From contig KE561324.1 of assembly GCA_000442015.1 (NCBI GenBank), positions 1 to 64,000 of the forward strand: a DNA stretch of 64,000 nucleotides, given 5' to 3'. Below are positions 2,809 to 47,292 of the stretch, piece by piece; within the stretch, counting starts at the first letter, position 1, and each line of letters begins with the position of its first letter. The notes beneath the pieces were generated by a model. That model was not told the DNA's origin. It did not search any database and was given only the letters and a program-made list of their open reading frames with translations. Source of the DNA: Rozella allomycis CSF55. Taxonomy: Eukaryota. The position numbers were made by a program, and so were the translations under genes.

Positions 2809-3701
2809 ATGCTTTACAGGATCTTTGACAAATTCTCTACATTTTTCTTTGAACCCCTTTTTATTTTATGGAAACGTCTTTTTTTCAGAGGAATCGACTT
2901 CAAGTCCTTATCCCATCGCAATTCAAAATCAAACAAACTAATGTATCGCAAGAAGAAAAAGTATTCCCAGGTAGCTTCAAATTTTGAGGCTCGACAAATT
3001 CTCTCACCACAGTACGAAATTGAATCCCAGACCACACATGGAAACTTTCTGGAACCTATTCTTTCAGACATTTACAACTTTCCGTTAACTTCGACGAAAT
3101 CTAAGATCACATTGCCCAAAAAGAAGAAGACTTTGGTGCTAGATTTGGATGAGACCTTAGTGCATGCATCTATGGAGGACGATACAAATGTTAGTTGGCG
3201 AATTGAGGTTGAGGTTGAGGGTCTATCATGCCTATATTTCATTAGAAAACGCCCTTTTGTTGATTATTTTCTTGATATTGTTTCTAAATGGTATTCTTTA
3301 GTTATATTTACAGCAAGCAAGAGGGAATATGCATCTAAAGTTATTGATTTACTAGACAATGGTAGGAGTCTATTTAAAGATAGATACTACAGAGAAGTAA
3401 TGGTATTAATGATTTAACATAAAGTCTTGTATTTCAGAGAACGATACATCATATTACAAAAAGTTGGATATCATTGATTCTGACTTATCCAGCATATTCA
3501 TTATTGACAATTCCCCTTTGTCATTCGCTTTATTTCCAGGTATTTAAAAAATATGGCAATTTTTTAGATAATGGTGTTCATATAGAGACATGGAAAAACG
3601 ATAAAAACGATACTTCCTTATTTGACTTGTTATCGTTCCTAGATGCACTCAGATTTTGTAATGATGTTCGTTCAATTATATCATTAAAGCAATTCACATG
3701 A
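2809..3701 (+). CDS. FCP/SCP-family CTD-like phosphatase (Nem1/Dullard-like)
   Basis: KKTLVLDLDETLVH catalytic motif, KRPFVDYFL, FTAS..YA, IIDNSP; 2 GT-AG introns. Confidence 0.85.
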
Positions 3702-21124: not shown

Positions 21125-22787
21125 ATGAAGTCATTTACATTGGAAGAAGTTTCCAAACATAAAAGTGCAAATGACATTTGGATTGCAATTAATGGAAATG
21201 TTTATGATGTTACCAATTGGCTTATAGATCATCCTGGAGGAAGAGCTATTTTATTGAAACATGGAGGAACTGATGCATCAGAGCAATTTGCAAAGTTTCA
21301 TAATCCAAATATACTAAATTCAATAGGATCAAAGTTTCTCATTGGGAAATTGGGACTTCCACAGGCTATTGACAAAGAAGTAAAACCAAAGGAAGCGTTG
21401 AGCTTTGGTGATGGCGTCGCATTTGGCGACCCCCAATGGTAATGAAAAAGACGGTTTACAAATAGGTATCAAGGAGTGAAAAGCCCATATTATGATGAAA
21501 GCCATTATAGATTGAGAAATTGTATTAGAGAATTTGTTGACAAAGAAATCATGCCATTTGCTCATGAATGGAACGAACAGGGTTATTTACCAAAAGATAT
21601 TTATTTGAAATTCGGAAAGGCAGGTTATTTAGCTTGTATTTCCCCAATACCTGAAAAATATTTAAAGTACCCCATGCCATGTGGATTAACGTTAAAAACA
21701 TTTGATCCATTTCACGAATTAGTGTTGGCGGATGAGCTATGCAGATGTGGATCTGGTGGTGTAGTTTGGGGGTTGATTGGAGGTAAAATTGTTAATTAAT
21801 CAAAACATGGTAATTTTATAGGACTTCCACCAATATTGCATTTTGGGTCAGAAGAATTAAAACAAAAAGTTATTCCAGAATGCGTTTCTGGAGAAAAGAT
21901 TTGCTGCCTTTGCATCACTGAGCCTTACGCGGGGAGTGACGTTGCAAATATTAAGACTACAGCAACGTTAACTCCAGATGGAGAGCATTTTATTGTCAAT
22001 GGCGAAAAGAAATGGATTACGAACGGAATGTTTGCTGACGTAATTATTTTGGCTGATGGATTTAGTTTTTCACTGTTGCTGTTCGAACTGGGGGTGAAGG
22101 CGCCGGTGGGATTTCTCTTTTATTGCTTGAACGCTCAATGCCTGGATTAACAACGAGAAAAATCAACACGAGTGGCCAATGGTGTTCTGGCACTGCCTAC
22201 ATTACATTTGAAAATGTTAAAGTTCCAAAATCAAATATTATTGGGCAAATCAATCAAGGGTTTAAAGTAAAGCATATATTTATCATTAAAAGGTTATAAT
22301 GTACAACTTTAATCATGAGAGAGTTGGAATGGCGATTCAATGTGTTCGATTCTCTCGTGTGTGTTATGAAGAAGCGTTCAAGTATTCTCTAAAAAGAAAG
22401 ACGTTTGGGAAACTTTTAATTCAACACCCAGTCATTCGTCAAAAATTAGCAAACATGATAAGGCAAATTGAGTCATTGGCTGTTTGGACTGAATCCATTG
22501 TGTATCAAACTAAAACTTTATCAAAGAAAGAACAGAATCTTCTACTTGGAGGTCCCACGGCTTTATTAAAAGCTCATTCTTCATTTGTGTTTGAATATTG
22601 CGCTAGGGAAGCAGCCCAAATATTTGGTGGGTTAGCATTCACCCGTGGTGGTCAAGCAGAAAAAGTTGAAAGATTGTACCGTGATGTTAGGGCTTATGCA
22701 ATTCCAGGTGGCTCTGAAGAAATTATGTTGGATTTGGGAGCAAAGCAAGCTATTAAAATGTCTCAATTGAATGGTGCAAAACTTTAA
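21125..22787 (+). CDS. Cytochrome b5 - acyl-CoA dehydrogenase fusion
   Basis: b5 motif NVYDVTNWLIDHPGG; ACAD motifs CITEPYAGSDVA, NGEKKWITNG, FNHER, AIPGGSEEIM; 4 introns. Confidence 0.92.
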
Positions 22788-24173: not shown

Positions 24174-25437
24174 TTATTTAGTTTGCTCAATTAATTTTAA
24201 AAAGCTATCAATGTTTGAATTCCATCTTTTGATGACAGCGTCATGTTTGAACAAAACCAGCATGTTTTGTCTGTCTATTGATGCATTAATACTTGCGGAC
24301 TTTATCATTGACGCCAAAAGCCTTTCAGTCTAAAAATAATGAGTACAACATATTACTGTAATTGAATCACATCCTATAAGACGAGCCAGTGCATCAATGA
24401 ATATGTTCTCATAATATTTTGAAATTACTTTGATATTATGAGAGAAGATTGTTGAAGAAAGAACAGTCAATCCATTCTCTAAAATAGCAGTCTGGTGTGG
24501 CTTGAGTTGTAAAGAGAACGAGTCCATCGTCTCCTTGGGCAATAGCTTTTCATTATATCTAGAAATATAGAAAGGCAAAAATTACACTCTTTCAAGAATG
24601 GTAAAATACTTTGAATTAGATACTCTAATGTCTTTCATTAGCATGTCCAGCATTTGAGACCTTTGTTGGCCCACATCCCCGAGAATAGTACAAACAATTG
24701 CTTGATCTAAAGAATAGTCTTTTTCAGCATCATCAATCACGAGTTTTGATAATTCCAGGTACTTATGCGCTGCGTCAATAAACTTTCTCTTGGAATCCAA
24801 AATTCTAACTTGACAAACCATTTTATGGCAAAAACAATATTTACTTTGTATTTTAACAAAAGAAGTGAATCTTGACAATTTGCTATTATTAATGAAGTCC
24901 TATTGATATGACTTTCTGCATTAATATAATCTTCATCCTCTAGAAATAATTGGGCGCTTTTAACATGGATAGAAATCTTTTCTTCATCGGGCATTAAACT
25001 TTTAATTAGTTAAAGTAATTTATACTTGTATCCCGAGCTTTGCACCAAACTCTCCAAAATCCTAGCAGATTCCGTCCATTTTTCCTGTTCTTCCAATAGA
25101 CTTGCAATCATAAACTTTGCTTTTATTATCAATTAGATTTACGTATTTAAATTACCTGTTGTTCAAATGACAAGGAACGCTCCATCTGTACGGTCAACGT
25201 TGACTTTAACACACCCAACTGCCAAGACTTATTAGGATTTTGCGAAATTTTTTCAAAGCAAGACTCGAGAACTTTTTGAGCAAAGGAAACATGAAAAACA
25301 TCTGACGTAAAAAAGCTGAAAAAATCAGGTGCATGCCTTTCATCGCTTGCTACATACTTTTCAAATAAATCATTAATTCTAATTAGACGATCGTTTTCAG
25401 TTGGATAATTAAAGGTTTCTTCAAAATCATGTTGCAT
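24174..25437 (-). CDS. CSN4: COP9 signalosome subunit 4
   Basis: SFEQQ, LFLEDED..NAE.HINR, RILDSKRKFIDAA, GQQRSQML, LKPHQ, HNI..ISKYYENI; 5 introns, two of them GT-TG. Confidence 0.88.
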
Positions 25438-25460
25438 TTTTACAGTCTGAAATTTTAGAA

Positions 25461-26879
25461 ATGCTTAGTGCATTGTTTATCTTGAACTTTAAGGGTGAAG
25501 TTCTAGTATCTCGTTCATACAGGCCTGAAGGGAAGTAAAATGCTCATTAAAGAGTAATTAGGCGAAGCTTGGCTGATGTATTTAGAATTCAAGTCGTTTC
25601 CGCTGCTAGAATCAAATCCCCCGTAATTACTGTCCAAAATACCACATTTTTTCATATTCATCATGAGAATATATATCTAGTCGCAGCCTCATCTATGAAT
25701 ACAAATGCTGTAATTTAGTAGTCACAAGTCATAAAAGGCAACAGTCTTTGAATTTTTGTATAAAGTTGTTCATTTGGGAAAAGGTTATTTTGGCAAATTC
25801 AATGAAGAAGCTGTGAAGAGCAACTTTTGTTTAATATACGAATTGTTTGATGAAATTTTGGACATTGGATATCCTCAAAACACAGAGCTGGATACTTTAA
25901 AACAATATATCACAACAGAGAGTGTTAAAAATGAAATGCCCAAAGAAGTCAGTAAAATCACAATTCAAGCTACTGGTGCAACATCATGGAGACGTTCTGA
26001 TATTAAGTACAGGAAAAATGAAGCCTTTGTAGATGTCGTTGAATCTGTAAACTTGATAATGTCATCAAAGGGAAATGTTTTACGTTCTGATGTTAGTGGG
26101 CAAATAGTCATGAAGGCGTTTCTGTCTGGAATGCCTGAATGTAAAATTGGACTCAATGATAAAATAATAAACGATAAAGAAAAGGCCAATACCGCGCCAG
26201 GAATCAAGTAGACCATAAATGTATGTACAAAAGGCCCGTAGGGACAGTTGAATTGGATGATTGCCAATTTCATCAATGTGTAAAATTGGGAAAGTTTGAA
26301 ACCGAGAGAACAATCAGTTTTGTGCCCCCAGATGGAGAGTTTGAGTTAATGAAGTAAAATTTCTTCCTTGTTTTTCTTTAGATATCGAACCACCGAAAAT
26401 GTTAACCCTCCTTTTAAAATCATTGCCAACTTGAATGAGTCCAGCAAGAATAGAATTGATTTCAAAATTACAGTCAAGTCTTGTTTCTCTACTCGATTAT
26501 TCGCAAACAACGTTATTATTAAGATACCTGTTCCACCAAACACATCGTCTTCTCAAATTAGATCGGTTATTGGAAAGGCTAAATATGTCCCAGCAGAAAA
26601 TGCTATTATTTGGAAAATATCGAGATTTCAAGGAGATGTTGAAGTCAGCTTATCTTCTGAAGTAGAATTGTCTTCGACAACAACAAAAAAGGCATGGTCT
26701 AGACCGCCAATATCAATGGCATTTGAAGTATAAGTGTTTGTTTTATTTATTAGGTGCCAATGTTTACAGCTTCAGGTTTACTTGTTCGTTTCTTAAAGGT
26801 ATTCGAAAAGTCCGACTATCAGACTGTTAAATGGGTTAGATATATGACAAAGGCTGGCTCTTATCAGTTTAAATTTTAA
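25461..26879 (+). CDS. AP2M1: AP-2 adaptor complex mu subunit
   Basis: [68 protein letters not shown]; 5 introns. Confidence 0.95.
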
Positions 26880-26958
26880 CGGAATAAATTTTAAAGTGTT
26901 TTACATTGAGTCAGTTTTCCTTGCTTGGGTCTTCAGGAATTTTCAAAACATTTTTCTT

Positions 26959-27767
26959 ATGGCGCAACTAGGAATATCAAGTATACCTCCCTCTCCTACC
27001 CTATATATAAAGAATATAAATGATAAAATTGGGAAAGTCGAATTAAAGAAGACGCTTTACGAGTTATTTGCCACGTATGGACAAATTATCGCTCTAGTCG
27101 TCTCAAAAGCTCCCAAAAGTAGAGGGCAGGCTTTTATTGTTTTTAAAGACATTCCAAGTGCGACTAACGCGATGAGAAATCTACAAAGTTATCCATTCTT
27201 TGATAAACCTATAGTAATATTTTAGATTTTGTCTAATAGGTTATTCAATATGCAAAAACTAAGAGTAAAGCAACTAAAGATATTGAAAAATGGGCTTCTG
27301 AACATGTTAATGAAATGCCATATCTAAGCGCTCTCCTGCCAGAGAAGAAATCGTCAACCGCTACATTAGCCGCAGCGAGTGCCGTTGTTGCTGAAAAAGC
27401 ATCATTAGAGAAAGAGGCCAAGGAGAGAGAAGTGTCAGAAAAAGTCAACAAAGTCAGTGAAAATCAAAAATCGGAAGTTGATTCTAAGATTCTCGATGAA
27501 TATACGAACCGCATCCTATTTTTGGAAAACCTTCCAGTAGAAGCAAACGAAACTCTTTTATCGCTATTGTTCGAACAGTAAGGTCCTAATTAGATCAAGA
27601 TTAGGTACGCGGGCTTTAGAGAAGTAAGAATTGTACCTGGTAGACCAGGAATTGCTTTTGTTGAATACGAAAGTGAAAATCAGGCCAGAATTGCTAAAGA
27701 TGTATTGAATGACTTTAAACTCACTCCAACACACGCCATGAAGGTTTCTTATGCAAAAACACACTAA
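26959..27767 (+). CDS. U1A / U2B-double-prime (SNF family) two-RRM snRNP protein
   Basis: PSPTLYIKNINDKI, RGQAFIVF, NRILFLENLP, EVRIVPGRPGIAFVEY, MKVSYAK. Confidence 0.9.
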
Positions 27768-27770
27768 CTT

Positions 27771-29306
27771 TTATTTAATAAATGCTAATTGAAATCCAGG
27801 CTTTTCTTTCTTCACTTGGATATAGGTTTTTTCATCTTGAACTATTTTTTGGTATAAAATGAAGTCAACTGTCAGCTTTAGAAGAGATGATTTTTCAAGT
27901 ATTTTCTTCAAATAATGCGCGAGACTTGCACCGTCAACATATTTACAATTATGAAATTCAATTTCAATCAAATTATTATCTTGGGCTGTCGACAATATCA
28001 ATATAACTTGTTGAGTCGTAAGGGCAGAAAAGATGGCTAGTTTCTTCAATTTTGCAGTTTTCAAATTGCCCACAAATAGAAGGAAATCAGTGTCTATGGC
28101 TTGATTAATTGCAGGCCCATGATAAAGCCCTAAATAATTCAAGTTTGTCTTTTCAAGTGTTTGGCCGACAACATTTAATAATGAAAAGTGCATTGTTGAG
28201 CTCCCTATAAGAAGTGTCTTTAGACTAGTATTTTGAAGAAGACTTTGAAATAAACATTCGTAGAAATTCATAGATAAATGGTTTTCTTTAATATTCAAAG
28301 ACTGAATCTCCGAGTTGTTGAGAACTTTAATAAGCATGCTCGTATTCTCATCTGTAAGGCCCATTCGTTCAATATTTAAATGTCGTACTTTAGAAAAAGC
28401 GAGAGTTTTAAAGAAATTGTTTAATCTGATGTCTCCCAATGGATTATTGGCCAAGTTAATATATTTAAGAGGCGTCTTTCTCGAAATTGCATCTACGAAG
28501 AGTGGTGTCAATTTACAATTAGGAGCCCATAAATGAGTTATTTTTGATTTGGAAATTGCTTGACCTAAGAAGTAATGCATTCTAGGATGTAAAGGTGTTC
28601 CTTCAAGAGAAAGATAGCTCAGATTTGACTCTTCAATTTTGTTTGCCAAAGTATAGACCTCAATGCTAGTCAATTCTAATACGGACCTTATGTGCAATCC
28701 TTTTAATGATTTTAGTGGCAAAGATTCAATGAAGTCATATGCATTACATTTAAGAGTCTGAGATAATGCATGAAAAGATGCCGACTCTAAATATTCAGAG
28801 TCCTTTAGATACACTTTCAAGTAAGACATCATTTTTTCATGTCTCAACAAAGCATCCCTTGATTTTATGTATGGGTTGATTAATTCTCTAGTAGTTTCTG
28901 AAAAATACCCTCCTCCATCTTTCCATTCTAAATGAAACGAAAGGGCGTCTAAGTGCTGTTCATTTGTGGCCTTAATTAAGTCCTCAAAAAACCACATCTC
29001 TTCCGGATTACTGAATATAATTGTGACTTGGTAGTTTCTTATATCGCTCCATTTACAATTATGAAAGGTTTTCCGCTGAAAAGTAAAGTAAGCAGTTCCG
29101 AATATGCGAATATCAGAATCTATAAGCATTTTTATATTAGGATAATGAAATGTAGGAATTACACCAGTACAAATTATTAACTTGCCTAACTCTAAATGTT
29201 TTGAAGGCGATGAATGGACATTTTTTGATCTTGCCATTTCATTTTGCTCAAATATGCTTAAAATAGAAACATAAAAATGCAGGAAAATCTTTGTGTAAAA
29301 ATTCAT
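27771..29306 (-). CDS. RNI-like leucine-rich-repeat protein, intronless
   Basis: LRRs such as LKYINLANNPLGD and IQSLNIKENHLS. Probable start MNFYTKIF (the open frame extends to 29372). Confidence 0.75.
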   Translation of the reverse strand: MNFYTKIFLHFYVSILSIFEQNEMARSKNVHSSPSKHLELGKLIICTGVIPTFHYPNIKMLIDSDIRIFGTAYFTFQRKTFHNCKWSDIRNYQVTIIFSNPEEMWFFEDLIKATNEQHLDALSFHLEWKDGGGYFSETTRELINPYIKSRDALLRHEKMMSYLKVYLKDSEYLESASFHALSQTLKCNAYDFIESLPLKSLKGLHIRSVLELTSIEVYTLANKIEESNLSYLSLEGTPLHPRMHYFLGQAISKSKITHLWAPNCKLTPLFVDAISRKTPLKYINLANNPLGDIRLNNFFKTLAFSKVRHLNIERMGLTDENTSMLIKVLNNSEIQSLNIKENHLSMNFYECLFQSLLQNTSLKTLLIGSSTMHFSLLNVVGQTLEKTNLNYLGLYHGPAINQAIDTDFLLFVGNLKTAKLKKLAIFSALTTQQVILILSTAQDNNLIEIEFHNCKYVDGASLAHYLKKILEKSSLLKLTVDFILYQKIVQDEKTYIQVKKEKPGFQLAFIK

Positions 29307-29454
29307 CTGTCGATCTCGATCTTTGAGTGTACCCTGGCACAGACTGAGGCATGATGCTTTGTTGGATGTCATCTGGACTTCAAAATGTCAAAAATGTCGT
29401 CATAGTAAATGATTAAATCGTGTATAGACTAATTTTTAAAATCAAATCATTTTT

Positions 29455-30480
29455 TTATTTAATCAATATGACATAATTGTCGTGTATCCTTTTGACCTCT
29501 ACGTTTTTTGAAAGTTTATGCAAGAAAGGCTTACTCGACGTTTTTAGCACATTGAAAAATAACATTTCATCCATAACAAGCCTCTTTAAACAAGTATCCT
29601 TAACAATATTTATCAATGATAATATATCCTCCGTCGAGAAATTCGCATAACTTATAACTAAATTGTTGATTTTTGATGATGCCAGGAATAACTTGAACTT
29701 TACAGAGAGTGTTGAATTGGAAACATCGAGTTCTTTAACATTCGAATTTGCTAATTTAGCTGCAAGTTTTGAAGCCTCCGGTGTATTTAATACCATATTC
29801 ATCATTTCTATTCTATTTAACTTAGAACTTTCAATGTTTTTCGAGAGAGAAACAATTGCTCTTTCTTCTACATAACATTTTTTGGAAAATTTTAGTGACA
29901 GTCTTTTTAAAGATGTCGGAAATGGTATTTTGGTTAATTGATTAATAACTTGGTCCGAGTTTTCGCATGACGAAATTAATATAGAATTAAGTTTCTTTGA
30001 TTGGCTAAGAGCTGTAATTAGCATAGAATCTTGTTCATTTATGGTTAAGTGAAATTTAATATCGTTAATCTTCTTTTCTTCTTTTTGTGAAAATAATTTT
30101 TCAAAAAGAAAGAGATCATTTGGCTTTTTAAAGAGAACAATTATTGGCTCCTTAGTTTTCATATTAGTCCAGTCACAGCGCCATAATCGATCATTAAATT
30201 TTACATAGATTCTTCCATTTGACCTGATTGGGGTAATTTTGGAGCATTCAAAAATGTCATTAGGCTTAAATGAACGGTGTTGCGAAGGTAAGGTAAAAGA
30301 CTCATGATCCTTTCCCTTTGCAAAGATTTGCTTTAACAGAGTGAAAGTTAACATCATTGTTTCCAATTTTGGCCGAAAGTTCTCTATAGTGCTTTTTGTA
30401 CTTGGAAATACAAATTTAACCACAGATGAAATAAAAGTTATGTACAAGATAACAGCTCGCACAAACAGACTCAAAAGCAT
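29455..30480 (-). CDS. Degenerate RNI-like LRR protein, tandem paralog of the previous gene
   Basis: Shares a hydrophobic N-terminus, C.W..(I/M), I.F..P...FE.L, FHL and IE.S.L motifs with 27771-29306. Confidence 0.65.
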   Translation of the reverse strand: MLLSLFVRAVILYITFISSVVKFVFPSTKSTIENFRPKLETMMLTFTLLKQIFAKGKDHESFTLPSQHRSFKPNDIFECSKITPIRSNGRIYVKFNDRLWRCDWTNMKTKEPIIVLFKKPNDLFLFEKLFSQKEEKKINDIKFHLTINEQDSMLITALSQSKKLNSILISSCENSDQVINQLTKIPFPTSLKRLSLKFSKKCYVEERAIVSLSKNIESSKLNRIEMMNMVLNTPEASKLAAKLANSNVKELDVSNSTLSVKFKLFLASSKINNLVISYANFSTEDILSLINIVKDTCLKRLVMDEMLFFNVLKTSSKPFLHKLSKNVEVKRIHDNYVILIK

Positions 30481-30663
30481 GTTTCAAAGCCACTCGCACG
30501 TTTCTGTGTCAGTACCAGGTATAGATCCAGGTCAAATGACACGTAGCTATCCAAAATTCGGGTAAGTGTTCTAATGATAATGCGCAGTATAAAGGCTCTT
30601 CATTAAAACTTAATAACTTACTACAAATACTATGAAATTCGACCGTTTATTTATTTTTGAATA

Positions 30664-31950
30664 TCAACTATTTTTCTTTGAAAAAAGTGAAACAAAAAAC
30701 CCATTAGTAAAATCTAAATCTGGATCAACTCTTCTCACCATGCCCGCACATTGATATGCCACTATGCCGCGTCGTTCCCATTTTGTTATATTTTGTAGAT
30801 GGAAATCTGGGTTATCGTCTAGAATTCTCTGCACAACTTGCTCATTTTCTTCTGCATGTATTGAACAAGTAGAATACACGAGATCACGCAAGTTTGGAAG
30901 AACTATTTCAAAAAATTTCTTAAGTTTTACCATTCATAGCATGTGAAACAATTTTGTATTGAAATTCACTTAAATTTCTTAATCGTGTTTCATCTATGTG
31001 ATTGTCCAGTCTTCGTTCCAGCTGATTAACTATACCAGATCCAGAACAACTTGGGTCGCAAAGAGCATATTCCACATCCTGTAAAAGTGGATGGTCACTC
31101 AACTTTAATGAAAGAAAGTCTTTGTTCAAGACGACAACTTGTTCGGCCATCCCCATATCGGACATTCGTTTTTTTAGTATTTCCGCCCTCTTAGGATCTT
31201 TTTCGACGGCTATTACTCTAACTTTGCCTTTGCACAAGCTCACTAAATGAGAGGTCTTGTTCCCTGGTGCAGAACATGCATCGATGACTACAGCACCTTC
31301 TGGAGCATTAAGTGCATGCGCAGGAAGGCAACTACTTTTATCCTGAAGAATTATTGCGTCTCTCTTGTACAAGTCATCTTTTGTGAGATTAGTTTCTGGA
31401 TGGAATAACAACAAGTCATTTAAATCTTTGTCTATACAAAATTGATTCTTTTCAAGCTTAATGTTGTAATCAACGAATTGGAAGTCTAATTTCTGGAAAT
31501 GGGAAATAGCGTCTTCAATTGAAATCTTAACTTGATTCACTCTAGCATAGCGCGGGAATATGTAAGACTTTGTTTCAGGTAGTAGGTTGCTTAATGACTG
31601 ACAGCATTTAATTAAATCTTGTTCATGCTTTTTGATTATGGCTTTGAATTTTCCCCCGCACTGAACATTTTTCTGAATTACACATTCGTATGTCAAAATT
31701 AAACCCATTTCGTATGAAATCTTTGATTAAAATACTAAATTATAGCTACTTTGTGTTTTGAATAAAATGGCTGAGATTTTAGTATGGATTTTAGTAGGTC
31801 AATGTTTTGAATAATTTTTGCCAAAAGGGCATAGAGTTTTGCTTTGTTTTTGTATTGAGAGTTATATACAAGGGATTTTAAAGATCCCTTTCTTGCTAGA
31901 ATCAGTTTTAGTATTTTTTCTGTTTGTAAATAAAAATTCTGATGATCCAT
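30664..31950 (-). CDS. NSUN5: 25S/28S rRNA m5C methyltransferase NSUN5/Rcm1
   Basis: PRYARVN, LQDKSSCLPA, DACSAPGNKTSHL, DPSCSGSG, VYSTCSIHAEENE. Confidence 0.93.
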
Positions 31951-32028
31951 GATGTGGCACAGCGGTAAAGTCGAACAAAGTATCGAGAGAATCGAGAGAT
32001 AAATATGTAACTTGTAAGAAAAGATAAT

Positions 32029-33277
32029 TTATTGTTGGGCGCATTGAACACCTGGTTGATGATAATGTTCATCTTCGTCGTGTGCTCTTCTTGTCCTTTC
32101 TCGTTGAGCTTTCTGTCTAGCATCCAAAGGACTTGATTCGACCTCCTCTATTTCAGCATTTGATGGAATGTTAGCGCTTGGGCGAGCTGGAAGAACGCTT
32201 TCTAACTTCTTTATCAATGTGGTGTTCATCATTGACGAAGTTGGGAAAATAATATCAAACGTTAAAATAAGGTCTCCCTTGTGGAATGGCTGCCTCTCAA
32301 CTGGCATGCCCTCTCCAGCTACGATTCTCATGTCGCCTTTATAAAGTTGAGAAATGTGAAATACCTGGTTTGATAACTTCTCCAGCAGGAAGATTAACTT
32401 TAATGTAACGATCATCTAAATGTTTCACGTACACGACACCGCCAGCTAATGCGGTGAGTAAATCAATAGATGTTTTGCAATAAAGATCATTTTCTTTCCT
32501 GGTAAAAACTGGGTGATCATTCTCAGAAACAATAATGTGGACATCTCCAGTTTCCTTTCCTGGTTCTTGATCAGCTTCACCACGGAAGGTTATAACACTT
32601 CCATCAGACATACCTTTTTCAATGTGGACTTCAAGAATTTTTCTCTCGCTGACAATTTTCTTTCCATTACAATTTTTACAGCGATCACTGGCAGACATTT
32701 TAACACCAGATCCCATACAATCTTGGCACTTAACTGTTTGTTGGGTAATCATTGGACCCATTTGCATGATTCTAACAGTCTTTCCTTGCCCTTGACAGCC
32801 ACTACAGGTTCGTGCATTCTTTCCACCTTTGCCATCACAACCTTTGCAAATAACATTCTTTGTGACTTGAAGTTTGGCTGCTTTTCCTTTGTAAAGATCT
32901 TCGAGGTTGACTTTAAACGTGTGTTGAATATCTTTCGTGCGTGCTGGCCCTCTACTTCTAGAACTTCCTCCAAATCCAAACATTTGAGAAAAGATGTCTT
33001 CGGCACTAAACCCTTCCATTCCTCCGTTTCCAGAAAGACCTTCTTCTCCATACTGGTCGTAAGTAGCACGCTTATTCTCATCCGATAAAACTTCATAAGC
33101 TCTTGATATATCCTTGAATTTATCTCCTGCGTCTGGATTTTTCTACTTGAAAAGGAAATTTTTTATTACGTCTGGATGGTATTTCAGTGCAAGCTTGCGA
33201 TAAGCTTTTTTAATTTCATTATCTGAAGCTGATGGCGAGATCTCGAGAATGTCGTAAAGTTTAGTGTCTTTCACCAT
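32029..33277 (-). CDS. YDJ1: Class A DnaJ chaperone
   Basis: [14 protein letters not shown] motif, CxxCxGxG repeats, C-terminal CaaX box CAQQ. Confidence 0.95.
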
Positions 33278-33382
33278 TTCAATAGTTGCAGGGGTTTAGA
33301 ACGAAATGGAATTTCGTGGAAAATCACTGTGGCTTAAAAAAATTGAATTATATTTAGCTTGAAGTTTGAACCTATTTTTTAT

Positions 33383-34461
33383 TTATATTCTAGCTGATCC
33401 ACTTGCCTGCTTAGGTTTGTGTGCCAAGAAGCTCTGGATGAAACCTGCAAATGCAGCTCCTGCAAAGTCACCGAGCCAATAAACCCAGTGAAGATCAAAT
33501 TTTCCGGTTAATATTGCTATTGTCAAAACCTTGGTTGAGCATTACCTGGACCAAATGCTCGAGCTGGATTAAATGCACCTCCTGAAGTTGACCCTCCAAT
33601 GAAACATAAGAAGCCAAGTGTGAACCCAATGGCAATTGGAGCAAATCCGGCTTTAGTGCTACCTGAAGTTGTATAAATTGTCAAGTTTCGTCCTATTGAC
33701 CTATCTTTTAAAGCATTTCCAGTGACAATTGGCTGTGCTTCGCCTTCCAAGTCACCCTCGTCTGTTGGAATATCAAGCTTGACCGCTGCATTCGTAGAAT
33801 CTACGGTATCAAAAGCGACTGCAAAGATCACGTATACAAGAATAAATGACAATATGAACTCTGTAACTACGGCGTTGATGACGTTGGTGTCCTTGTAAAC
33901 TGACACCAAGACTTCTGAAAACACAACGTTTCCTTTTTCAGGGAAAACGACTGCGAGAAATGCAGTAGCGATGACTGCCGCAAACAGCTGAACACCAATA
34001 TATCCTGCTCCTTTTATCCATGACGTCTTTCCCATAACCTTACCCCACCAACGTCAAATGTTTACCATAGTTCCAAATGTGACAGCTGGATTGAAATGAG
34101 CACCGGAAACATCGGCGAATGAATAAATGACTGCTACTGCGGTGAAACCTGTCCCTACTCCACCGATGATTATGCCAACAGCATCACCTCCAAGGCGATA
34201 AACATTGACTCCAGTAGCCATTACGACAAATAAGAAGATGAATGTAGCAAGGAATTCACCCAGCAATGCTTTTGCAAGCTAATGATAGGTTTGTTTGTTG
34301 ATTATTACCACTGAACGTTTTTCTGTCATGTAAGCTTTTGCGTCTTCCATGGCCGCCATTCCTCTATCACCTACAATCTTTTTTAAAGGAACGTTATTCG
34401 AAAGTTTGGATTTTGGTCTTGATTGTCGCTCAATATCGTTGACTTCGGAAAAGTCGCTCAT
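33383..34461 (-). CDS. Aquaporin (MIP family)
   Basis: GEFLATF, SGAHFNPAVT, GGAFNPARAFGP, HWVYWLG; 3 introns. Confidence 0.95.
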
Positions 34462-34530
34462 TGTTGGTATCCAAGAACACTTTGGAAACAAGTTTCAAGC
34501 ATCGAAAAAATGTGAATACATTAATTGATT

Positions 34531-36836
34531 TTAATAATCAAAGCCATTTATTTTCATATCCTCTGCTGATTTGATGAAAGGTAATAGGAGTTCCAGTTGG
34601 TGTTTTGTGAAAGTAGCGGAAGACAAAGTCGCTTTTACCTTTAATAAACCGTTTGCCCGTATAAGAGTGAAAATGCATTTTCCGATTAGATTGGGGAACT
34701 AAATGAAAAGATCGGATGCAAGATACCATGTTAAGCTGATAAATCTTTTCGTAATGGACTGCAAGTTGAGCTGCTGCGTTCAAAGCATGTGATATTTTGT
34801 TTTCGTTGGTGTAAATTTCAACAAGTTGAGTCCATGAATGCATTGAAGAGGATAATTCAAGAGAGTTGTGATAAGCTTCTTTTGCATCATCAATTCTGTC
34901 CAATCTCAAAGCTAAATCACCAAGTATTTCCCATTCAGCTTGAGAACGTCTATAATCTGTATTTTGCATTTTATAATGCTGGGCTTCTGCTTTCCAAATT
35001 GTGTAAACCTTCAAATCTTCATACAGGGTCATGAAGAGCATATCCAACCATCTTTCACAAAGCCTTTTATTATTAATCATTTGAACAACTTTGCTTCCTT
35101 GTCTAGAATGCGAAGGAGTATTTGTGTCAATTTTCAATTCTTCCAATGACTTATTTAATGTTTCTGTTTGTTGCAGATTAATATTTTTAATGTCGTCGTG
35201 ATCAACTTCAGTCAAGTCCTTTTCTTCGTTGTGGGCAGTTAAAGTATTTTCAAACGAAACTTCTTTTGCAGGGGGTTCGACTGGAGTGAAAACTTCCATT
35301 TTTTGTCTTGTGACTTGTTTTTCAGCGACATGTTTGAATTGACGATACTCTTCATCCATTACAAATACATCAATTCTTAGCTGAAGTAAATCTTCCCATC
35401 CCAAATTCAACGTTAACTTGCTCAACAATGAATAAACCTTTCTTGTAATTCCCCTCAATTGACTCCCAACAAGTTTCTGTAACGTTGGATCCACTTGACC
35501 ATGACCATAAATTTCAGACTTTTATTTTAATGACTACAAATTACTTCAATCGATTGACTTGATTCCAAAATTCCATCCTTACTTGGAATATGCACTTTTG
35601 CAGGGGGTGGAAATCTGATGGAATTATCCACATGATTGTAAGGCCAATTAGGACATGCATTCATTATAATCAAAGCCTTTTCTCAAAGTAAATAATATAA
35701 ATACTTTTCTAAAATCCTTTTTAGCAACGTACAGCATGCAAAGTTGCTCCCATGGTATAAACTCTAATGGTAATGCTTTAACAGCTTTGTTTCCCACATC
35801 TATAGCATCTTCAATGCAATCCTTTTATCTTTAAAATATAAAAAGTACTTTGGATTTTAAAAAGTTTGCCAAACTTTCCAACAGAACTGCATTGTTAGGA
35901 AACACACGAAGTGATTTGTTCAATATTTTAAGCCCTTTTATTTCATCATCTGCATGAAAATAACAATCAGCTACATGTCCAGCTATTTCCAATTCCTCTG
36001 AAACAAGCTCAGAAAAGAATGCAGCGGCTATCGCTGCCCTTTGGGTCTCACAGAAATATTTCTTTATTCCAAGCGAGAGATAATTGCATGATTTTGTTGG
36101 AAATTGATATTGCTCTGGAGCACCAATATCAACACCTTTGATTTTTCATTCAACTTATTACCCTGCCAAAAGACTGCCTTGGCGGCCTCTAAAAATTTAC
36201 TCTCGGTAGCTTCAGATTGTAAGGGACTTAATCTTCTAGTTGCTGGAACTTGCAAATAATCATCTTGCGACCATATACTACGTAAAACACTCGATACAAA
36301 GGATTCTTGCAAGACATCAGCTGTTGCAGGATACCTTTTAGTTAATTTAACTTTCCGTACCTATTTCCTTTCTCATCAATTACATATGCATCAACGCCGC
36401 CAGGTATATGTATTTCAACTCTTAGATCAACTCTAGAAAATGCATTATAACAACAAAAAACGCCCGAGGTGACTTTCCATTGGGGTTTAGAAAACCATCC
36501 AGCAGAATCATCCATTGCATATGTCAAGGTATTTAAATATGCTGCTATCGTTGCAATACTTGGTCTCGAGACAATAAATTTGGCTTACGAGGAACAATCG
36601 ACTCCTTGTACCATATGATAGCTTCCAATCTAATCTTTTATGGATTAATTATATACCTCTCTATTTTCTTTCTTTAGAGTTTTAACGACATGGACCAAAT
36701 CAATCGGTCCCAAGTCCTTGAATGACTCTTCTTAAACAAGTCAGATTCAATTACCAATCGCTTCATTTCTTGTTGTTATTGCTGTCCCGATTTCAAACTC
36801 TATTACCTCGGGAATATTTTTATAATACTCACTCAT
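34531..36836 (-). CDS. Exomer cargo adaptor, ChAPs family (Bch1/Bud7)
   Basis: DLGPIDLVHVVK, FCCYNAFSRVDLRVEIHIPGGVDAY, KRLCERWLDMLFMTLYEDL, EWEILGDLA; about 9 introns. Confidence 0.92.
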
Positions 36837-37174
36837 TGGTGAACCAATTTGGAAATTTCATCAACCACAAGGTTCCATTATTCATTTTTTTAAATCTGAT
36901 GTTCGATGGCGGAACACCACTTGAGAAATCTTCGTGTCAACCATAACCTGGGTTATTGTACAACTTATAATCTTGGAGGACACGAAGATTGAGAGTATCA
37001 CTGTCCATCGTATCTGCTTACTTTCATATAATGAATTTGAGTTCGAAGTGTGGAATACAAATTATAAAAAACATCAGTATTAGGTTAAATTATATTAAAA
37101 CGGATAACTTTTAGTCTAGAAACCTATTTTTATAGATGGAATTAGTGGCTGAGTGACTTTGACATTGAAGCTGC

Positions 37175-38284
37175 ATGAAGAAAGCTAATCTTACACTAAC
37201 AATCAAATTTGCTGTATCACTAATATTATTGGGTATTCTTTCTCTCACCCTCTTTTTCTTAGTTAACGCTGATACCAAAGGCCTGGAGAAGCAGCAAGAT
37301 AAGAATTTGCAAATATTTGACTCTAAAAGCAAAAACACAATAAACCCCAATTCTAAAATTGGAATCGATTCCCCAAGTTCGCCCATGATTGATAAATCCA
37401 GAACTAGAATAATACCCGCAGGATTGAAGAATGCTGGGAACAGTTGTTTTATGAACTCTTTAATGCAAGTTTTAGCTGTTTGCCATTTTGACAGAGCATT
37501 AAAAAATTCTAATGACATATTCCACAAGACTACTTTTGGGTTGATCACCAAAATTAGACAAGGTGGGGCAATAAACCCCTATAAAGAATACAAAAGCATT
37601 ATATATCCGGCCTTGAGTCTTGGTTTCGGAAAACAAGAAGATCCAGATTTTGCTTTTATGAAATTACTCGGCTTGAACAATATAGCAGATTACGGAAATC
37701 CATTCAAGTTAACACTCGAAGTTTCATTTAGAAAATATTCAGAAAACGCCAAATACGACAATGCAAGAAAAGAAATCAATGGCCAACACAATATAAGCTT
37801 ATTGAAATTGAGAGATCATGACACATTAGAGACAATGCTGAATGAATATCTTAATCCTCCGCGGTCTGATTTGTTGCATTTGGAATTTGATGGAGAGGAT
37901 AAATTGCTTGAAGGGTATACCGAAAGCTCTGTGAAAGTTTTACACGCAAACCGATATGTCTGGTTCAGCATTCAAAATCCATTTGGTAAATCTCCAGTGA
38001 AAGATGTGCCCATGAATTTCAGTATGCTTATAGGTGAAAAGATGCGATATTTACATTTGAAAGCGGTGATAGTAAAATGATTATTTTCATATTCCTAGGT
38101 ATTTATTGGATCTGATAATGCCGGTCATTACTATTCGTATACAAAGTATGGCAGTTCGTGGTATTTAATTAATGATTCGAAAGTGCATTCCAGACCTAAT
38201 TTAACCTGGAGCAAGGAATTTAGAAAAGCACATCCAAGTACCATGATAACCCAAGCAGTATATAAAGTTTCAAACAGAAAATAG
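37175..38284 (+). CDS. USP/C19 deubiquitinase with an N-terminal signal or TM anchor
   Basis: Cys box GLKNAGNSCFMNSLMQ, QED, His box GHYYSY..W..INDS in exon 2; hydrophobic FAVSLILLGILSLTLFFLV at the N-terminus. Confidence 0.82.
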
Positions 38285-38342
38285 AAATAAAAATCAATTT
38301 TGATATTTGATTTTGTGCTTTTGAAAAATTCGACCCTGGTAC

Positions 38343-41300
38343 ATGGGGAAAAAGAGAGTTAGATATAATGAAAAAGGTCGACAAAGCAAAAAAGGCGAGT
38401 AATATAAAATAATTTATTTTCCAAGATCTAAGGGAGAAGATTCGAATGTTCTTATCATAGATCCATCACAGCCAGTGGAGATCGAGGAACCAAAAATGCC
38501 AGAAAAAATGAATCCAAAAAAGAAGAAAAGATTGGAAAAGTATATTGTAATTTATAAAATAAATTGTAAAAGGAACGAAAGTTGAAAAAGGAAGAGAAGG
38601 TGTTGTTGATGGAAAAATTGTCTAAATCTGCTTTTAAGAGCGAGCTGTTGGTTTCGACAAAAAATCTTGGTCATAAAGTTGAAACGAAAAAAGAAAAACT
38701 GAGAAGAGTATTACAAGAACAAAGACTTGGGCTTCCATTGACCTATGAAGACACTGATCTGGTGAAGGAAAAGATAGTTGAGGACATTGATGAGTCTAGT
38801 GAAGAAGAAGAAGAATTGTCGACTAATCTTGAACTTGAAGAAATTATGGAGAAACGAGAGATGATAGAAGAAAAGGAAAAAGAGGAGAAGATTAAAAGTT
38901 TGGAATTGGAAAAGGCCAAAGAAGAGGAAGAAAGACCCAAGTTGATAGAGAATACAGAAATTAATAATAGAAAGGTAAATTTACTTTTAAAATTTCAAAG
39001 GCATTTTATGTTCCTGTGAATAGATCAGATGACATTAGAGTTGCTAGGATGAAGCTACCTGTAGTTGTGGAAGAACAGCAAATAATGGAATCGATATATG
39101 AGAATGATGTGGTGATTATTTGTGGTGAGACTGGGAGTGGTAAAACGACGCAAGTGCCGCAATTTTTGTACGAGGCTGGCTTTGGACATCCAGATAGTGA
39201 GAATCCAGGGATTGTTGGGGTTACTCAGCCAAGAAGAGTTGCGGCTGTTAGTATGGCCCAACGAGTAGCCACAGAGTTGAATTTATCTTCTGAATATGTT
39301 TCTCACCAAATCAGATTTGATTCAAGTGTTTCAAAGAAAACTGTGATAAAGTTTATGACTGATGGTGTCTTGTTGAAAGAAATAGCGAAAGATTTTATGC
39401 TTTCGTCTTATTCAGTTTTGATTATTGATGAAGCGCACGAAAGATCGTTGAACAGCGACATTGCAATTGGGTTAGTTTCTAGAATTGTAAAATTAAGAAG
39501 AGAAAAAGAGATTAATGGGATTGTGAGACCTTTAAAGATTATTATCATGTCTGCTACGTTGAGAGTTGATGATTTTGCCAACAATCCAAACCTTTTCACT
39601 CCATCGCCTCCAGTGATTCACATCAAATCTAGACAATTTCCAGTCACAATTCATTTTAATAAAAAGACCCCTGATGATTACTTAGATGAAGCATTTAAGA
39701 AAATCTGCCAAATTCATTCAAAACTTCCAGCTGGTGGTATTTTAGTCTTTCTTACTGGCCAAAATGAAGTTCACGCACTTTGTAAAAAGTTAAAGTCGAG
39801 ATATCCATCAAATTCAAATCAATTAGAATCAAAAATTTCAAAAGAAAAAACTTTGATTGCAAAGAGAGAAGAAATAGACGCTGGTTCATTTGAGCTGGAT
39901 GAAGACCCAGATGAAGTTATTGAACAAGTTGATTCCCCCGTCGATGAATCCAAAATAGAAGACGATTTCTATCTTGAAAATGACACAAAGGAACCTCTTC
40001 ATGTTCTTCCTCTATACGCTCTGTTGCCCACTGATGAACAATTGAAAGTTTTCAAAGAACCTCCCCCTGGTCATAGACTCTGCGTTGTAGCTACAAACGT
40101 TGCTGAAACCTCTTTAACTATTCCTGGGATTTCTTACGTTGTTGATTCTGGAAAAGTTAAAGAAAGAGTTCACGACGCAAAATCAAAAATGCAAAGCTTC
40201 AAAGTTGATTGGACTTCAAAGGCATCAGCAGATCAAGTAATCACCTTTCATTAATTTAAAATCAAGCGAAGTGGTCGTGCTGGTAGAGTTGGCCCTGGTC
40301 ATTGTTACAGGCTATATCATTCAGCTGTTTTCGATAACAACTTTGAAAAGTTTTCTAAACCTGAAATTGAAAGAATGCCTATAGAAGGCGTTGTTTTGCA
40401 AATGAAAAGTATGCACATTGACAATGTTGTAAATTTCCCATTTCCTTCCCCGCCAAATTCTCAAATACTCTTTGAAGCTGAAAAAGTACTCTATACGTAT
40501 TCTTTAATATTAGCTCTTAATGAGCTTAGAAGCTCTTGATACTAACAATAAATCAATTACCTACATTGGTCGGATGATGTCGGCGTTTCCTATCTCGCCT
40601 AGATTCGCGAAAATGATTATTCTTGGAATGAACAATAACGTTCTTCAATGGATCATCCCTCTTGTCGCTGCTCTGTCTGTGGGAGACCCCTTTGTTAGAG
40701 ATCTAGAGAACGGAATAGTTAACGAAAAAGATTCTCAAGACTCTGAGGAAAAAAGAGAAAAAAGGAAAAAATATTTTCAAACACATCAAGTAAATCATAT
40801 ATTTTTTGTTTTATAGACTTTTGCTGGTAAACACCCCGACAGCGATTCCTTGAAACTTTTATCTGCCTTTTGTGCCTCTGAATACTCTTCAAATATTGAA
40901 GATTTCTGTAACACTCATTTTCTTAGGCCTAAGGCTATCAAGGAAATGAAACAATTGAAGGCTCAGCTCATCTCAATTGCCAGGGTTATTAATCCAAAAT
41001 TTTGTGAAAAAATGAAATTTGATAAAGTTCAGCCGCCAAATGATTCTCAACGCTCAATAATTAAACAAATTATCGCTTCTGGTTTTATTGATCAAATTGC
41101 CAAACTAAAGCCAAAAATGTCTCACGAAAAGGCGTTTAAATATCAAACACTATTGTCGAAAGAAGACGCGTTAATTCATCCTTCGTCATGTTTATTTAAT
41201 GAAAGCCCGCCTGAATTTGTCGTTTATGAAGAATTAGTGCAAACTTCACACGTTTACATTAAAGGATTAACTGCAATTTCAGAGTCGATTATTCCAATAG

Positions 41301-41778
41301 TTGCAAGGAGCCAGTGCACATTTAGCAAACCATTAGACACCCCTGAACCTTTCTATAATTCAGAAAAAGATAAAATGATTTGCTACGTCAAACCTTCATT
41401 TGGTACGGTTCTTTGGGAATTAACACCAACTCCAATTGAGTTTCCAGAGTGTGTTGAAAAATATCGATATTTTCTTAAAAATCTCCTCGAAGGAAATATC
41501 ATCAAAGGCTTCTCCAAATTTACTGGTATTTTGAACAGTAAACCCATTTCTTTGCTGAGACCCTGGGCTCAAAAGAAGCTGGTTGATTTAATAGTGCCAG
41601 TTAAAAATAATAAGATTTCAACCAAAAAAGATTTATTAGAGAAATGGTACCCTTATTTTCATAAGTTTAATGTAGGAAATCGAATCCATCATTTTTATTG
41701 CATGGATACTTGCAATGGATTCCAATAGAACATCAACCAGTAGTTAAGCAAGAGTGGACTAAATTGATCAAAGAATAA
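38343..41778 (+). CDS. DHR1: DEAH RNA helicase Dhr1/Ecm16 (DHX37)
   Basis: MGKKRVRYNEKGR, GETGSGKTTQVPQFLYEAG, DEAHER, SAT, QRSGRAGR; 7 introns. Confidence 0.95.
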
Positions 41779-41860
41779 ATTTTATTATTATCATATTTAA
41801 CGGCTATATTTTCAGAATTTAAATCGGCTCTCTTGCCTCAATTGTTTGTAAATTTCGTAA

Positions 41861-43283
41861 ATGTTTAAGCGGTTAAAGTCAAAGAAAAAGAATGAAGACA
41901 CGCCGTCACAAGAAATGGATACAAAAAATACTCCCTTACAAATATCATTTAACTATGATGACTTTTACAGAGATCAGATAGTACCAACTTTACATTTCCT
42001 CTATCAACCACACACTCTGACTGTCTTACTAGTTATGCTTTTGGCATTTCTTTATGTTGCAGTATATAGATCATCAGTAGACCCCGTGGATAACATAAAA
42101 ACGTAATTTAACATTGCTTTGATGTCTTGAGAGGCTTGGTGGCTTCATCTATTGTGCTTGTATTTATAGGAAGCCTTCATTTGCCAAATGGTCCTTTTAT
42201 TAGACCGCATCCGGCTTTCTGGAGATTTGTGATGGCGTTAAATGTCGTTTATCAACTTTTTCTTGTGTTTCTACTATTTCAAGTAAATATTATTGGTTTT
42301 ATTTAAAGGACAAACATCATTCAAGAGCATGGTTAGGATACATCGATTCTTCATTGGGTGTTAGACTCCCTGAGCGCTCTTACGCAGAATTTTGTGATTT
42401 CACATATGTTAACATAAAAGTATGTTAGCTTTTTCTTTATAAAAGTCACAAATGGACATTTTCGTCGTAGCCCATGCTTTGGGGTGGTTCGCAAAAGCTT
42501 TGATTATTCGAGATTATTGGTTTTGTTGGATTCTATCTATTATGTTTGAATTAATGGAGTACTCTTTGCAACATCATCTTCCAAACTTTGCCGAATGCTG
42601 GTGGGACCATGTATGATTCATATGTATATTCAATAGTGGATCTTGGATGTTTTCATTTGTAATTGGTTAGGATTATACCTTGGGATGAAGGCTTGCGAAT
42701 ACTTTAAAATGAAAGTAACAAAATTCAGCGGTTATTTCTAGCATTATTCTTGGCGCGGGGTAAAGGACTACCAAAGTTATTCAGGAAAAGTAAAACGCAC
42801 GGTAGCTCAATTTACACCACATTCTTGGACAACCTTTGAATGGGGTCCCACAAAGACCTTTAAAAATTTTGTCGCTGTTATCTTTTACCTATTTATGGTA
42901 TTGCTCTTTGTTACTCTTCATTGAAGTTTTTATTATGTGAAATTAATGCTTTCTATTTAAAATATCTGTTATGGATACCTCCTGAGCATATTCTTAATCC
43001 TATTCGTCTGGTTCTGTATTTTTTCTTTGGCAGTGCTGCCACACGTGAAGCCTATCAATTTTTAACTGATCCACGATGCAAACGTTTGGGTTCACAGGCA
43101 TGGCTCGTAATTGCTAGTATAATGACAGAGACATTGATCTGTATTAAATACGGAAAGGATGAATTCTTAAACCCTGCTCCTGCACATGTCAAAATTTTCT
43201 GGGCGATAGGAGTATCAGCATTATCCATATGGGCCTGGAACTTTTTTTATTTCAGTAAAAGGAAGATACAAAAAATAAACTAA
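41861..43283 (+). CDS. Base-exchange phosphatidylserine synthase (PTDSS1/2 family)
   Basis: [51 protein letters not shown]; 6 introns. Confidence 0.92.
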
Positions 43284-43405
43284 TTATAAACGTATCATTA
43301 TTACTCAATATCGTTCATTGGTTGAGGGACACTTAGCCAAATTCTATTTTTAGCAATTCAAAAAATATATATGCGCTGGAATTTTAACTCCTTCAGCTAG
43401 CATTA

Positions 43406-44169
43406 ATGGATAGACAATTACAATCAATCTTTGAACGCTTTTGTTCTTTTGGATCAGGTTCTATGACCAATCTCTCAGCACCAATGCCTCAAATGGATGG
43501 TGCAAAGTTTGCAAAGTTTACAAGAGACACCAAAATCGTAGATAATAAGAGAATCAATTCAACTCAAGTCGATATAATATTCAACAAAATCAAACATAAG
43601 AATGAACGAAAGATTGATTATGCACAGTTCCGTAAAGGCCTTCAAATGTTAGCTCAATTAAAGTTCCCAGAAAAGGAGTCATCACTCGCTTACAACATGT
43701 TAGTCGACCATGTAATTTCTCAAAAAGGACCTTCATTAGCGGAAAATGTTACGGTAAAATATCATATTTGCTGTCATAGAAAATCGACAATTCTAATATA
43801 GTCAATAGAATGACAAATCCAAAACTGTATCCAGAGGCTCACAAGCAAAGGTATGCCGACGCGAATACAAAAAAGTTGAACAACTCATCTTCACATGGAA
43901 ATTTGAACTCAATGCACAACCAGCAACAAAATCAGCATGAATTAAAGCTTTCGTACTCATCATCATTAACTAACATTAATAACGTTCAACAAAAGAACGC
44001 AGCGAAGAATCAGAATTACAAGACTGCGGTTAAACAAGGCTCATCGTCCAATAATGCTTTTGCCTCAAAGCAACATAAAAATAATATAGCAGCAAATGCA
44101 AAAGTTGAAAATCAATCAGCAAATATGATGCATCAACAAAAAAAGAATGTTGCACACTCTCAACGTTAA
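43406..44169 (+). CDS. TPPP: p25-alpha/TPPP microtubule-binding protein
   Basis: MDGAKFAKFTRD, VDIIFNKIK, VNRMTNPKLYPEAHKQRY; N/Q-rich tail. Confidence 0.82.
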
Positions 44170-44212
44170 AAGCAAATTTGAATAAATATAGATTATAATG
44201 CGTCGTTTATTT

Positions 44213-47170: not shown

Positions 47171-47292
47171 TGGAATGTTCAGAAAAATTGTAACCTTAGA
47201 AACAATGATTCGATGTGTAACATATGTGACTACATTAAAATTTGGTAAGTCAAAGTTTGAACATGTTAAAATAGGAAATTCTGGGAAACTTT

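Follow-up and report, generated by a model that had tools for sequence, protein, structure and literature searches.

We analyzed a 64,000-nucleotide (nt) stretch of the nuclear genome of Rozella allomycis CSF55 (GenBank assembly GCA_000442015.1, contig KE561324.1, positions 1 to 64,000 of the forward strand; hereafter the window) and examined the introns of the gene for subunit 4 of the COP9 signalosome (CSN4). Two of the five introns in this gene end in TG, and from the sequence we consider it likely that both are spliced at GT..TG constitutively, or at least productively. The comparisons below support the view that both segments must be removed exactly at these boundaries for the protein to be made, and the two are probably U2-type mini-introns in which TG serves as the sole productive 3′ splice site. 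The gene and its introns are as follows:

25437-24174, minus strand: CSN4 gene, with ATG at 25437, TAA stop codon at 24176-24174, six exons, 376 amino acids
25155-25130, minus strand: CSN4 intron 1, 26 nt, GTAATTTAAATACGTAAATCTAATTG, GTAATT...AATTG, 3′ end TG, phase 0, no internal AG
25025-24999, minus strand: CSN4 intron 2, 27 nt, ordinary GT-AG
24844-24819, minus strand: CSN4 intron 3, 26 nt, GTAAATATTGTTTTTGCCATAAAATG, GTAAAT...AAATG, 3′ end TG, phase 0, no internal AG
24585-24559, minus strand: CSN4 intron 4, 27 nt, ordinary GT-AG
24356-24330, minus strand: CSN4 intron 5, 27 nt, ordinary GT-AG

Excision of all five introns (two of 26 nt ending in TG and three GT-AG introns of 27 nt) left 376 codons without a stop in the standard code, and a stop-free CSN4 protein of this length was obtained only when 26 nt were taken out at both TG sites. 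An earlier note on this DNA had described two 26-nt minus-strand segments, 25155-25130 and 24844-24819, that end in TG and contain no AG, and their sequences proved to be exactly as it gave them. Its further statement that removal of 25155-25130 frees the frame of a stop was confirmed by the stop-free reading frame of 376 codons and by a gapless alignment to a CSN4 profile. In other respects introns 1 and 3 are ordinary, with a GTAA donor, the minimal length of 26 nt, an A/T-rich body and, at position -3, either T or A. Numbered from the donor, the earliest AG in each of the two ends at nt 36, 10 nt past the TG and out of frame. In-frame AGs lie downstream at 41 nt in intron 1 and at 56 and 62 nt in intron 3, and their use deletes conserved residues. 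When only AG endings were permitted, our own gene finder split CSN4 into two fragments. A ciliate-type code, in which TAA would specify a residue and a 23-nt GT-AG intron would lie at 25142-25120, was considered and dropped, as the 376-amino-acid model contains no in-frame TAA or TAG and has TAA as its terminator.

The translated exon 4 matched a public protein, P0001, which is listed by its source as CSN4 and as a hypothetical protein from Rozella allomycis CSF55 and for which the families PF01399 and PF22241 were precomputed. A dicyemid origin of the window, which the 26-nt introns had at first suggested, was rejected on the basis of this match. Assignment of the TG model to CSN4 is supported by full-length similarity that includes the PCI region and covers profile positions 11-382 of 414. 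To build this profile, P0001 was searched with phmmer against 1.84 billion representative sequences, which returned 545 matches at E ≤ 0.001; among the 150 matches listed (149 besides the query itself), we used the 106 with lengths of 340-470 amino acids and excluded P0001 and 43 shorter or longer sequences. Because the query was P0001, a model that uses GT-AG introns only, the resulting set of homologues cannot favor the TG model.

On the profile of 106 homologues, the model with TG at both sites scored 326.8 bits in one gapless stretch spanning both junctions. The 41-nt GT-AG alternative at 25155 scored 315.0 bits, and the best GT-AG variants at 24844 reached 293.5, 292.6, 289.4 and 282.3 bits, the last being the 62-nt intron of the public model. 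P0001 itself scored 201.5 bits. We also scanned all frame-restoring deletions with donor shifts of up to 15 nt in either direction and acceptor shifts between -15 and +39 nt (336 variants at 25155 and 515 at 24844). At both sites, the top group consisted of the proposed 26-nt deletion and its slides by 1-6 nt, which encode the same or nearly the same protein, and GT..TG was the only variant with a GT donor in that group (326.8 bits). The next-best options with a GT donor at 25155 were a 23-nt GT..AA intron (320.5 bits) and a 29-nt GT..TA intron (319.8 bits).

Solved structures provided a comparison for the junction at 24844. In exon 3 (51 amino acids), residues 7-50 aligned with residues 144-187 of human CSN4 (6r6h_D) and residues 4-51 with residues 133-180 of 9is6_D. 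Residues 1-76 of exon 4 aligned with 189-265 of 6r6h_D, and its first residue corresponded to 181 of 9is6_D; the solved CSN4 chains were matched at E values of 2.6e-14 and 2.1e-07. Since the alignments of the two exons adjoin, exons 3 and 4 abut residue for residue on both chains (188 and 189 of 6r6h_D, 180 and 181 of 9is6_D), which bears out the earlier statement that removal of 24844-24819 restores collinearity with CSN4. The same PDB search yielded no CSN4 match for exon 1 (its hit, at E 0.77, is at chance level) and no match for exon 2.

Comparison with P0001 indicated what a model restricted to GT-AG does to this gene. P0001 has 334 amino acids against 376 in the TG model and is otherwise identical to it wherever both exist; the 42 residues that it lacks fall in five places. 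Two of these gaps, IIKAK after the 25155 site and VCQVRILDSKRK after the 24844 site, arise because P0001 places a 41-nt GT-AG intron at the former site and a 62-nt one at the latter. The loss of five residues with the 41-nt intron had been predicted in the earlier note, and IIKAK is the stretch concerned. The remaining three gaps of P0001 correspond to extra introns set within exons.

We then asked whether the TG dinucleotides are reproducible in independent DNA data. Logan contigs of four runs were compared with the window over 24650-44640, and CSN4 was covered by contigs of three of them (X1, X2 and X6), from three studies. X1 and X2 come from two studies, and either may be the source of the window. 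Over CSN4, the X1 and X2 contigs showed no difference from the window. X6, from another sample and study and about 0.6% divergent, differed by seven substitutions and no gaps over 24650-25771, and none of its six listed substitutions falls within a TG intron. Four of these (24705, 24908, 25085 and 25243) lie in exons 4, 3, 2 and 1, one in each, and each of the four affects a third codon position and is synonymous when read in the frames of the TG model (P = 0.014, given that 34.4% of the possible transitions in the CSN4 coding sequence are synonymous). The other two listed differences, 25016 and 25020, both lie in the 27-nt GT-AG intron 2.

The earlier note had called for a check of the genomic TG, and no assembly error was seen, the contigs of X1 and X2 being identical to the window at both TG introns and that of X6 having neither a gap nor a listed substitution in them. 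An error in the assembly or the reads, whereby the true DNA would have AG or a nearby insertion or deletion would let an ordinary GT-AG intron fit, would need two separate events, each of which happens to imitate a segment that runs from GTAA to TG and has precisely the shortest intron length. Nothing was found in its favor except that one X6 difference has no listed position, and we regard it as extremely improbable, even allowing for X1 or X2 as the source of the window. Decay of CSN4 into a pseudogene, in which the acceptors changed from AG to TG and functional messenger RNA (mRNA) is no longer made, is also very unlikely, if slightly less so. Rozella is a parasite with a reduced genome, and two defective-looking acceptors within one gene would suit such decay. 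Against it, the exons run without a stop or frameshift over 376 codons and reach 326.8 bits on the CSN4 profile, all four exonic differences in X6 are synonymous, and two of its six listed differences are confined to a 27-nt intron. Both explanations are thus disfavored by the gap-free contigs of three runs together with the exclusively synonymous exonic changes.

Removal of the two segments by machinery other than the major spliceosome was considered as well, either by the minor spliceosome or by unconventional splicing of the IRE1/tRNA-ligase type. The XBP1 intron is 26 nt long, and IRE1-type introns can be of about that size. The sole points in favor of such a route are the non-AG end and the length of 26 nt, which is also the commonest length of ordinary introns in the window. 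Moreover, the donors GTAATT and GTAAAT match the donor profile of the window, and no CNG-type motif was seen at either of the two cut sites on reading the sequence. Read directly, the donors GTAATTTA and GTAAATAT also lack the extended 5′ motif of U12-type introns, and we give this explanation hardly any weight. The two CSN4 introns agree with U2-type introns in donor, length, frame and collinearity and depart from them in lacking AG at the 3′ end.

To place these introns in the intron population of the window, we used our own gene finder, which combines codon log-odds from 29 long open reading frames with dynamic programming over start, codon, intron and stop states. In the first pass, introns were restricted to GTA or GTT donors and AG ends, with one flat penalty for lengths of 24-32 nt and an additional 2 nats for other lengths. 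This pass placed 85 introns: 21 of 26 nt, 16 of 27 nt, 18 of 28 nt, 20 of 29 nt, five of 30 nt, three of 31 nt and one each of 32 and 39 nt, with none shorter than 26 nt. The second pass used learned scores for donor, acceptor flank and length and admitted all 15 non-AG endings at one equal penalty. It predicted 159 introns, with 152 ending in AG, four in TG and one each in CA, TA and AA. Their lengths were 26-31 nt in 158 cases and 39 nt in one, and 26 nt was both the shortest and the commonest length (45 of 159). Previous work has described the introns of R. allomycis as short, at about 30 nt (PMC6349667), and gives a density of 2.5 introns per kb (PMC8476143).

The 152 predicted AG introns carry A at position 3 in 99% of cases and at position 4 in 70%, a profile that the donors GTAATT and GTAAAT of the TG introns fit. 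Beyond GTA(A) and (T/A)AG, the predicted introns have almost no internal consensus. YTRAY occurs in 49 of the 152, at scattered distances and without a positional branch-site signal; it is absent from intron 3, whereas intron 1 has CTAAT 3 nt before its TG end. CTAAT directly ahead of the end is also found in ordinary introns at 27214-27239 (plus strand) and 20814-20789 (minus strand). The first AG at or beyond 26 nt is the end in 150 of the 152, and AGs at which an intron would measure 24 nt or less are frequent in their interior (4-7 per position at 20-24 nt). TG is not clearly depleted near intron ends, where it accounts for 13 of 408 dinucleotides, compared with 118 of 2,128 in intron bodies.

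Five junctions, each of them on the minus strand, could not be parsed with AG ends alone: 25155, 24844, 44531, 11205/11200 and 49146. As a control, we allowed one further dinucleotide at a time, with the following results:

AG plus TG: 6 introns placed, score gain 21.7
AG plus TA: 4 introns placed, score gain 15.4
AG plus TT: 3 introns placed, score gain 7.9
AG plus AA: 3 introns placed, score gain 7.7
AG plus each remaining dinucleotide: at most 2 introns placed, score gain at most 4.5

This control alone cannot fix the ending, because any in-frame ending mends a frame. At four of the five junctions, however, if lengths below 26 nt are set aside, the first in-frame ending is TG (at 26, 26, 27 and 27 nt). 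With TG frequencies of 0.055-0.063, the binomial P for this outcome lies between 4e-5 and 2e-4. Besides the two CSN4 introns, the junctions are:

44531-44505, minus strand: candidate third TG intron, 27 nt, GTAAAATATATTTTTTTCTTTTAATTG, which would connect an orphan gene with an open frame of 96 codons
11200-11174, minus strand: weaker candidate for a fourth TG intron, 27 nt, GTATTTAAGCATTAGGTAAAAACGGTG, in a gene that we take from its translation to be RhoGAP-like
49146-49104, minus strand: AG-less junction in an LRR gene, with in-frame TG at 22 and 43 nt, AT at 25 nt, TT at 28 nt and TA at 31 nt

The frame downstream of 44531 has a coding score of 0.093 per codon, compared with means of 0.094 for predicted coding sequence and 0.011 for open frames outside the predictions. 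On the other side, the upstream frame has its own stop, and the gene may simply end there. No Pfam family was found in the exons of this candidate, the downstream exon had no homologue among 73 word-sharing candidates, and the 3′ end has no homologue support. For the weaker candidate, a 27-nt GT..AA intron from the donor at 11205 fits the frame equally well, the frame upstream of 11200-11174 scores 0.057 per codon, and the two scanned exons flanking it match no Pfam family. At 49146, where the downstream exon matches LRR families, no option of 26-31 nt ends in G (TT at 28 nt and TA at 31 nt).

Two other non-AG calls were rejected. A TG end at 47217-47244 (plus strand) was a parser artefact, as it abuts another intron and lies upstream of the likely start of a gene that, from its translation, is presumably PRELI-like, and a CA end at 3658-3683 (plus strand) is better explained as a 32-nt GT-AG intron. 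Early screens that joined open reading frames were too noisy for counting acceptor types. The earlier note had put TG use at 4-5 of roughly 160 introns. The total of 159 agrees with this, and the TG count is confirmed in part, being close to that figure but less secure: two TG introns are well supported and two more are candidates, the junction at 49146 fits TG only at 22 or 43 nt, and the call at 47217-47244 dropped out. The TG rate in the window is therefore about 1-3% (two firm cases and two candidates among some 159 predicted introns). A search for relatives in metagenome contigs gave 110 pattern matches, none of which was confirmed.

Several features of individual introns were recorded in passing. 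The stretches 25130-25138 and 44505-44513 (minus strand), at the ends of two of the TG introns or candidates, have a common 3′ context, TAATTG followed by ATA, and AATTGATA is also present in an intron-like stretch at 9301-9273 (minus strand). The 39-nt predicted intron at 21783-21821 (plus strand), which belongs to a gene for an acyl-CoA dehydrogenase, includes a TG in frame at 27 nt, with GTAATTTTATAG after it, and use of this TG would add four residues; solved acyl-CoA dehydrogenases do not align up to this junction. In the 26-nt GT-AG intron at 38975-39000 (plus strand), X6 has four clustered differences (38981, 38982, 38984 and 38986), and the sole gap of the X6 contig that covers it is an ATTC insertion behind 37166, outside the intron. 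Introns thus appear to evolve fast while their length is kept. Over 42155-42207, X1 and X2 each yielded an additional contig, which carries five linked differences and makes up about 30-45% of the summed depth, and X6 has only that variant, which suggests two haplotypes in the sequenced isolate.

A number of results weigh against productive TG splicing of both CSN4 introns. At 25155, TG leads GT..AA and GT..TA by only 6-7 bits, compared with a margin of 33 bits at 24844, and cuts shifted by 1-2 nt would yield an identical mRNA (GG..TT in intron 1; TA..GG or AA..GT in intron 3). Both firm cases lie in one gene, and for the two other candidates there is no homologue that would define the ends. 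Our own gene finder is the source of both the intron set and the length rule, and the narrow range of the second pass is partly built in because its length prior was learned in the first; the 26-nt floor is not built in. None of the 15 runs listed for the locus is an RNA run; X11, the sole RNA run under the species label, gave three records consisting of chance pieces of 19-22 nt without joints, and the seventh X6 substitution has no listed position. Finally, nine predicted AG introns pass over a TG at a would-be length of 26-27 nt in favor of an AG 1-5 nt further on, which indicates that the dinucleotide still matters.

The position of the next AG bears on the most substantial alternative, namely that TG is a minor or alternative site and that most CSN4 transcripts are joined at the AG 10 nt downstream, as a 36-nt, out-of-frame intron, or retain the segment, so that the introns act as a brake on CSN4 output. 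That both introns have an AG ending at exactly nt 36 fits this idea. In intron 1, moreover, CTAAT, a possible branch site, lies 13 nt ahead of that AG and 3 nt from the TG, and 13 nt is the more usual spacing between branch point and 3′ site. In human genes, TG acceptors occur solely beside an AG (PMC2374985). On the other hand, a length of 36 nt falls outside the 26-31-nt range of 158 of the 159 predicted introns, and the 10-nt tandem distance is not the 3-nt spacing over-represented in the human data (PMC2374985). The productive frame is also under purifying selection, all four exonic differences being synonymous, which implies that at least some use of TG is required. On balance we regard this alternative as unlikely, though clearly less so than the others, and retain productive GT..TG splicing as our preferred reading.

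Under this reading, the 3′ site is probably chosen as follows. The U2-type spliceosome of Rozella would reach 3′ sites only over a short stretch whose near edge is 26 nt away from the 5′ site, and within this reach the first AG would be taken. Where no AG falls within reach, a TG at the near edge would be used instead, as in the two CSN4 introns, whose next AG is at nt 36; such a choice would keep the terminal G and tolerate U in place of A at position -2. The TG ends do lie at the 26-nt limit where no AG follows before nt 36-50. A narrow range of distances combined with a hierarchy of AG over TG fits the data better than a choice by distance alone. The proposal in the earlier note that the spliceosome picks the 3′ site mainly by distance accordingly holds in part: the 26-nt floor, the range of 26-31 nt and the first-AG rule in 150 of 152 introns agree with it, and the nine introns in which AG beats TG do not. 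The stronger statement, that the spliceosome measures a fixed 26-nt minimum from the 5′ site with a short reach beyond it and that AG recognition is dispensable for intron definition, seems to us evenly poised between right and wrong. The note had also spoken of an undescribed system, which is overstated, as what we see looks like a variant use of ordinary U2-type machinery.

Selection of the 3′ site in the second step by distance from the branch point is known from yeast and from AG-independent introns. The scheme suggested here for Rozella resembles it in the late choice, the limited reach and the terminal G as key contact, and differs in that only 49 of the 152 predicted introns contain YTRAY. 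Fritillaria is one lineage rich in non-canonical introns, and ultra-short introns characterize the genomes of Paramecium, Stentor, chlorarachniophyte nucleomorphs and microsporidia; no report of TG ends in ultra-short-intron systems was found. Myxozoans and dicyemids likewise have a narrow length class near the physical minimum with little internal signal, but their introns are described as compatible with canonical 3′ site recognition, and the passages that treat them mention no non-AG ends (PMC13644364). In Oikopleura dioica and Eurytemora affinis, GA-AG introns show that a U2-type spliceosome can process non-GT-AG termini at the percent level; there the 5′ dinucleotide varies and AG is kept, whereas in CSN4 of Rozella the 5′ GT is kept and AG is lost (PMC7072748).

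TG acceptors have been surveyed in humans by Szafranski et al. (2007), who reported TG 3′ sites in 36 genes, about 0.02% of sites (PMC2374985). In that study, TG was "never the sole 3′ splice site" and always occurred in tandem with AG, with a 3-nt spacing over-represented, in agreement with the earlier description of TG acceptors as rare alternatives beside an AG. The vertebrate sites resemble the CSN4 introns in that TG replaces AG after a GT donor in an otherwise ordinary U2-type intron, and TG proved in that study to be the non-AG ending that functions (PMC2374985). CSN4 departs from this type, since TG appears to be the sole productive site and the next AG, 10 nt away and out of frame, does not form such a TG-AG tandem; the rate of about 1-3% in the window also contrasts with the human figure of about 0.02%. 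A survey of non-canonical splice sites that spans animals, fungi and plants mentions GT-TG and Rozella nowhere in its main text (PMC7072748), and a paper on Paramicrosporidium contains neither "intron" nor "splice." No report of TG acceptors in Rozella was found in the literature searched, a search that did not extend to supplementary intron tables or the Rozella genome paper.

Few signals in eukaryotic genes vary as little as the AG with which U2-type introns end. If the reading proposed here is true, Rozella would provide the first case of constitutive GT-TG introns in a eukaryote, and public Rozella gene models, which follow a GT-AG-only rule, would be systematically damaged at TG sites. 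Annotation and orthology work on the Rozella reference genome may suffer wherever such introns occur. If TG stands alone as the acceptor in a conserved gene that looks essential, Rozella, a neighbor of the microsporidia with a 26-nt floor on intron length, would provide a natural system for studying how the 3′ site is found in the second step of splicing, and in particular how much AG recognition is needed when geometry leaves almost no choice.

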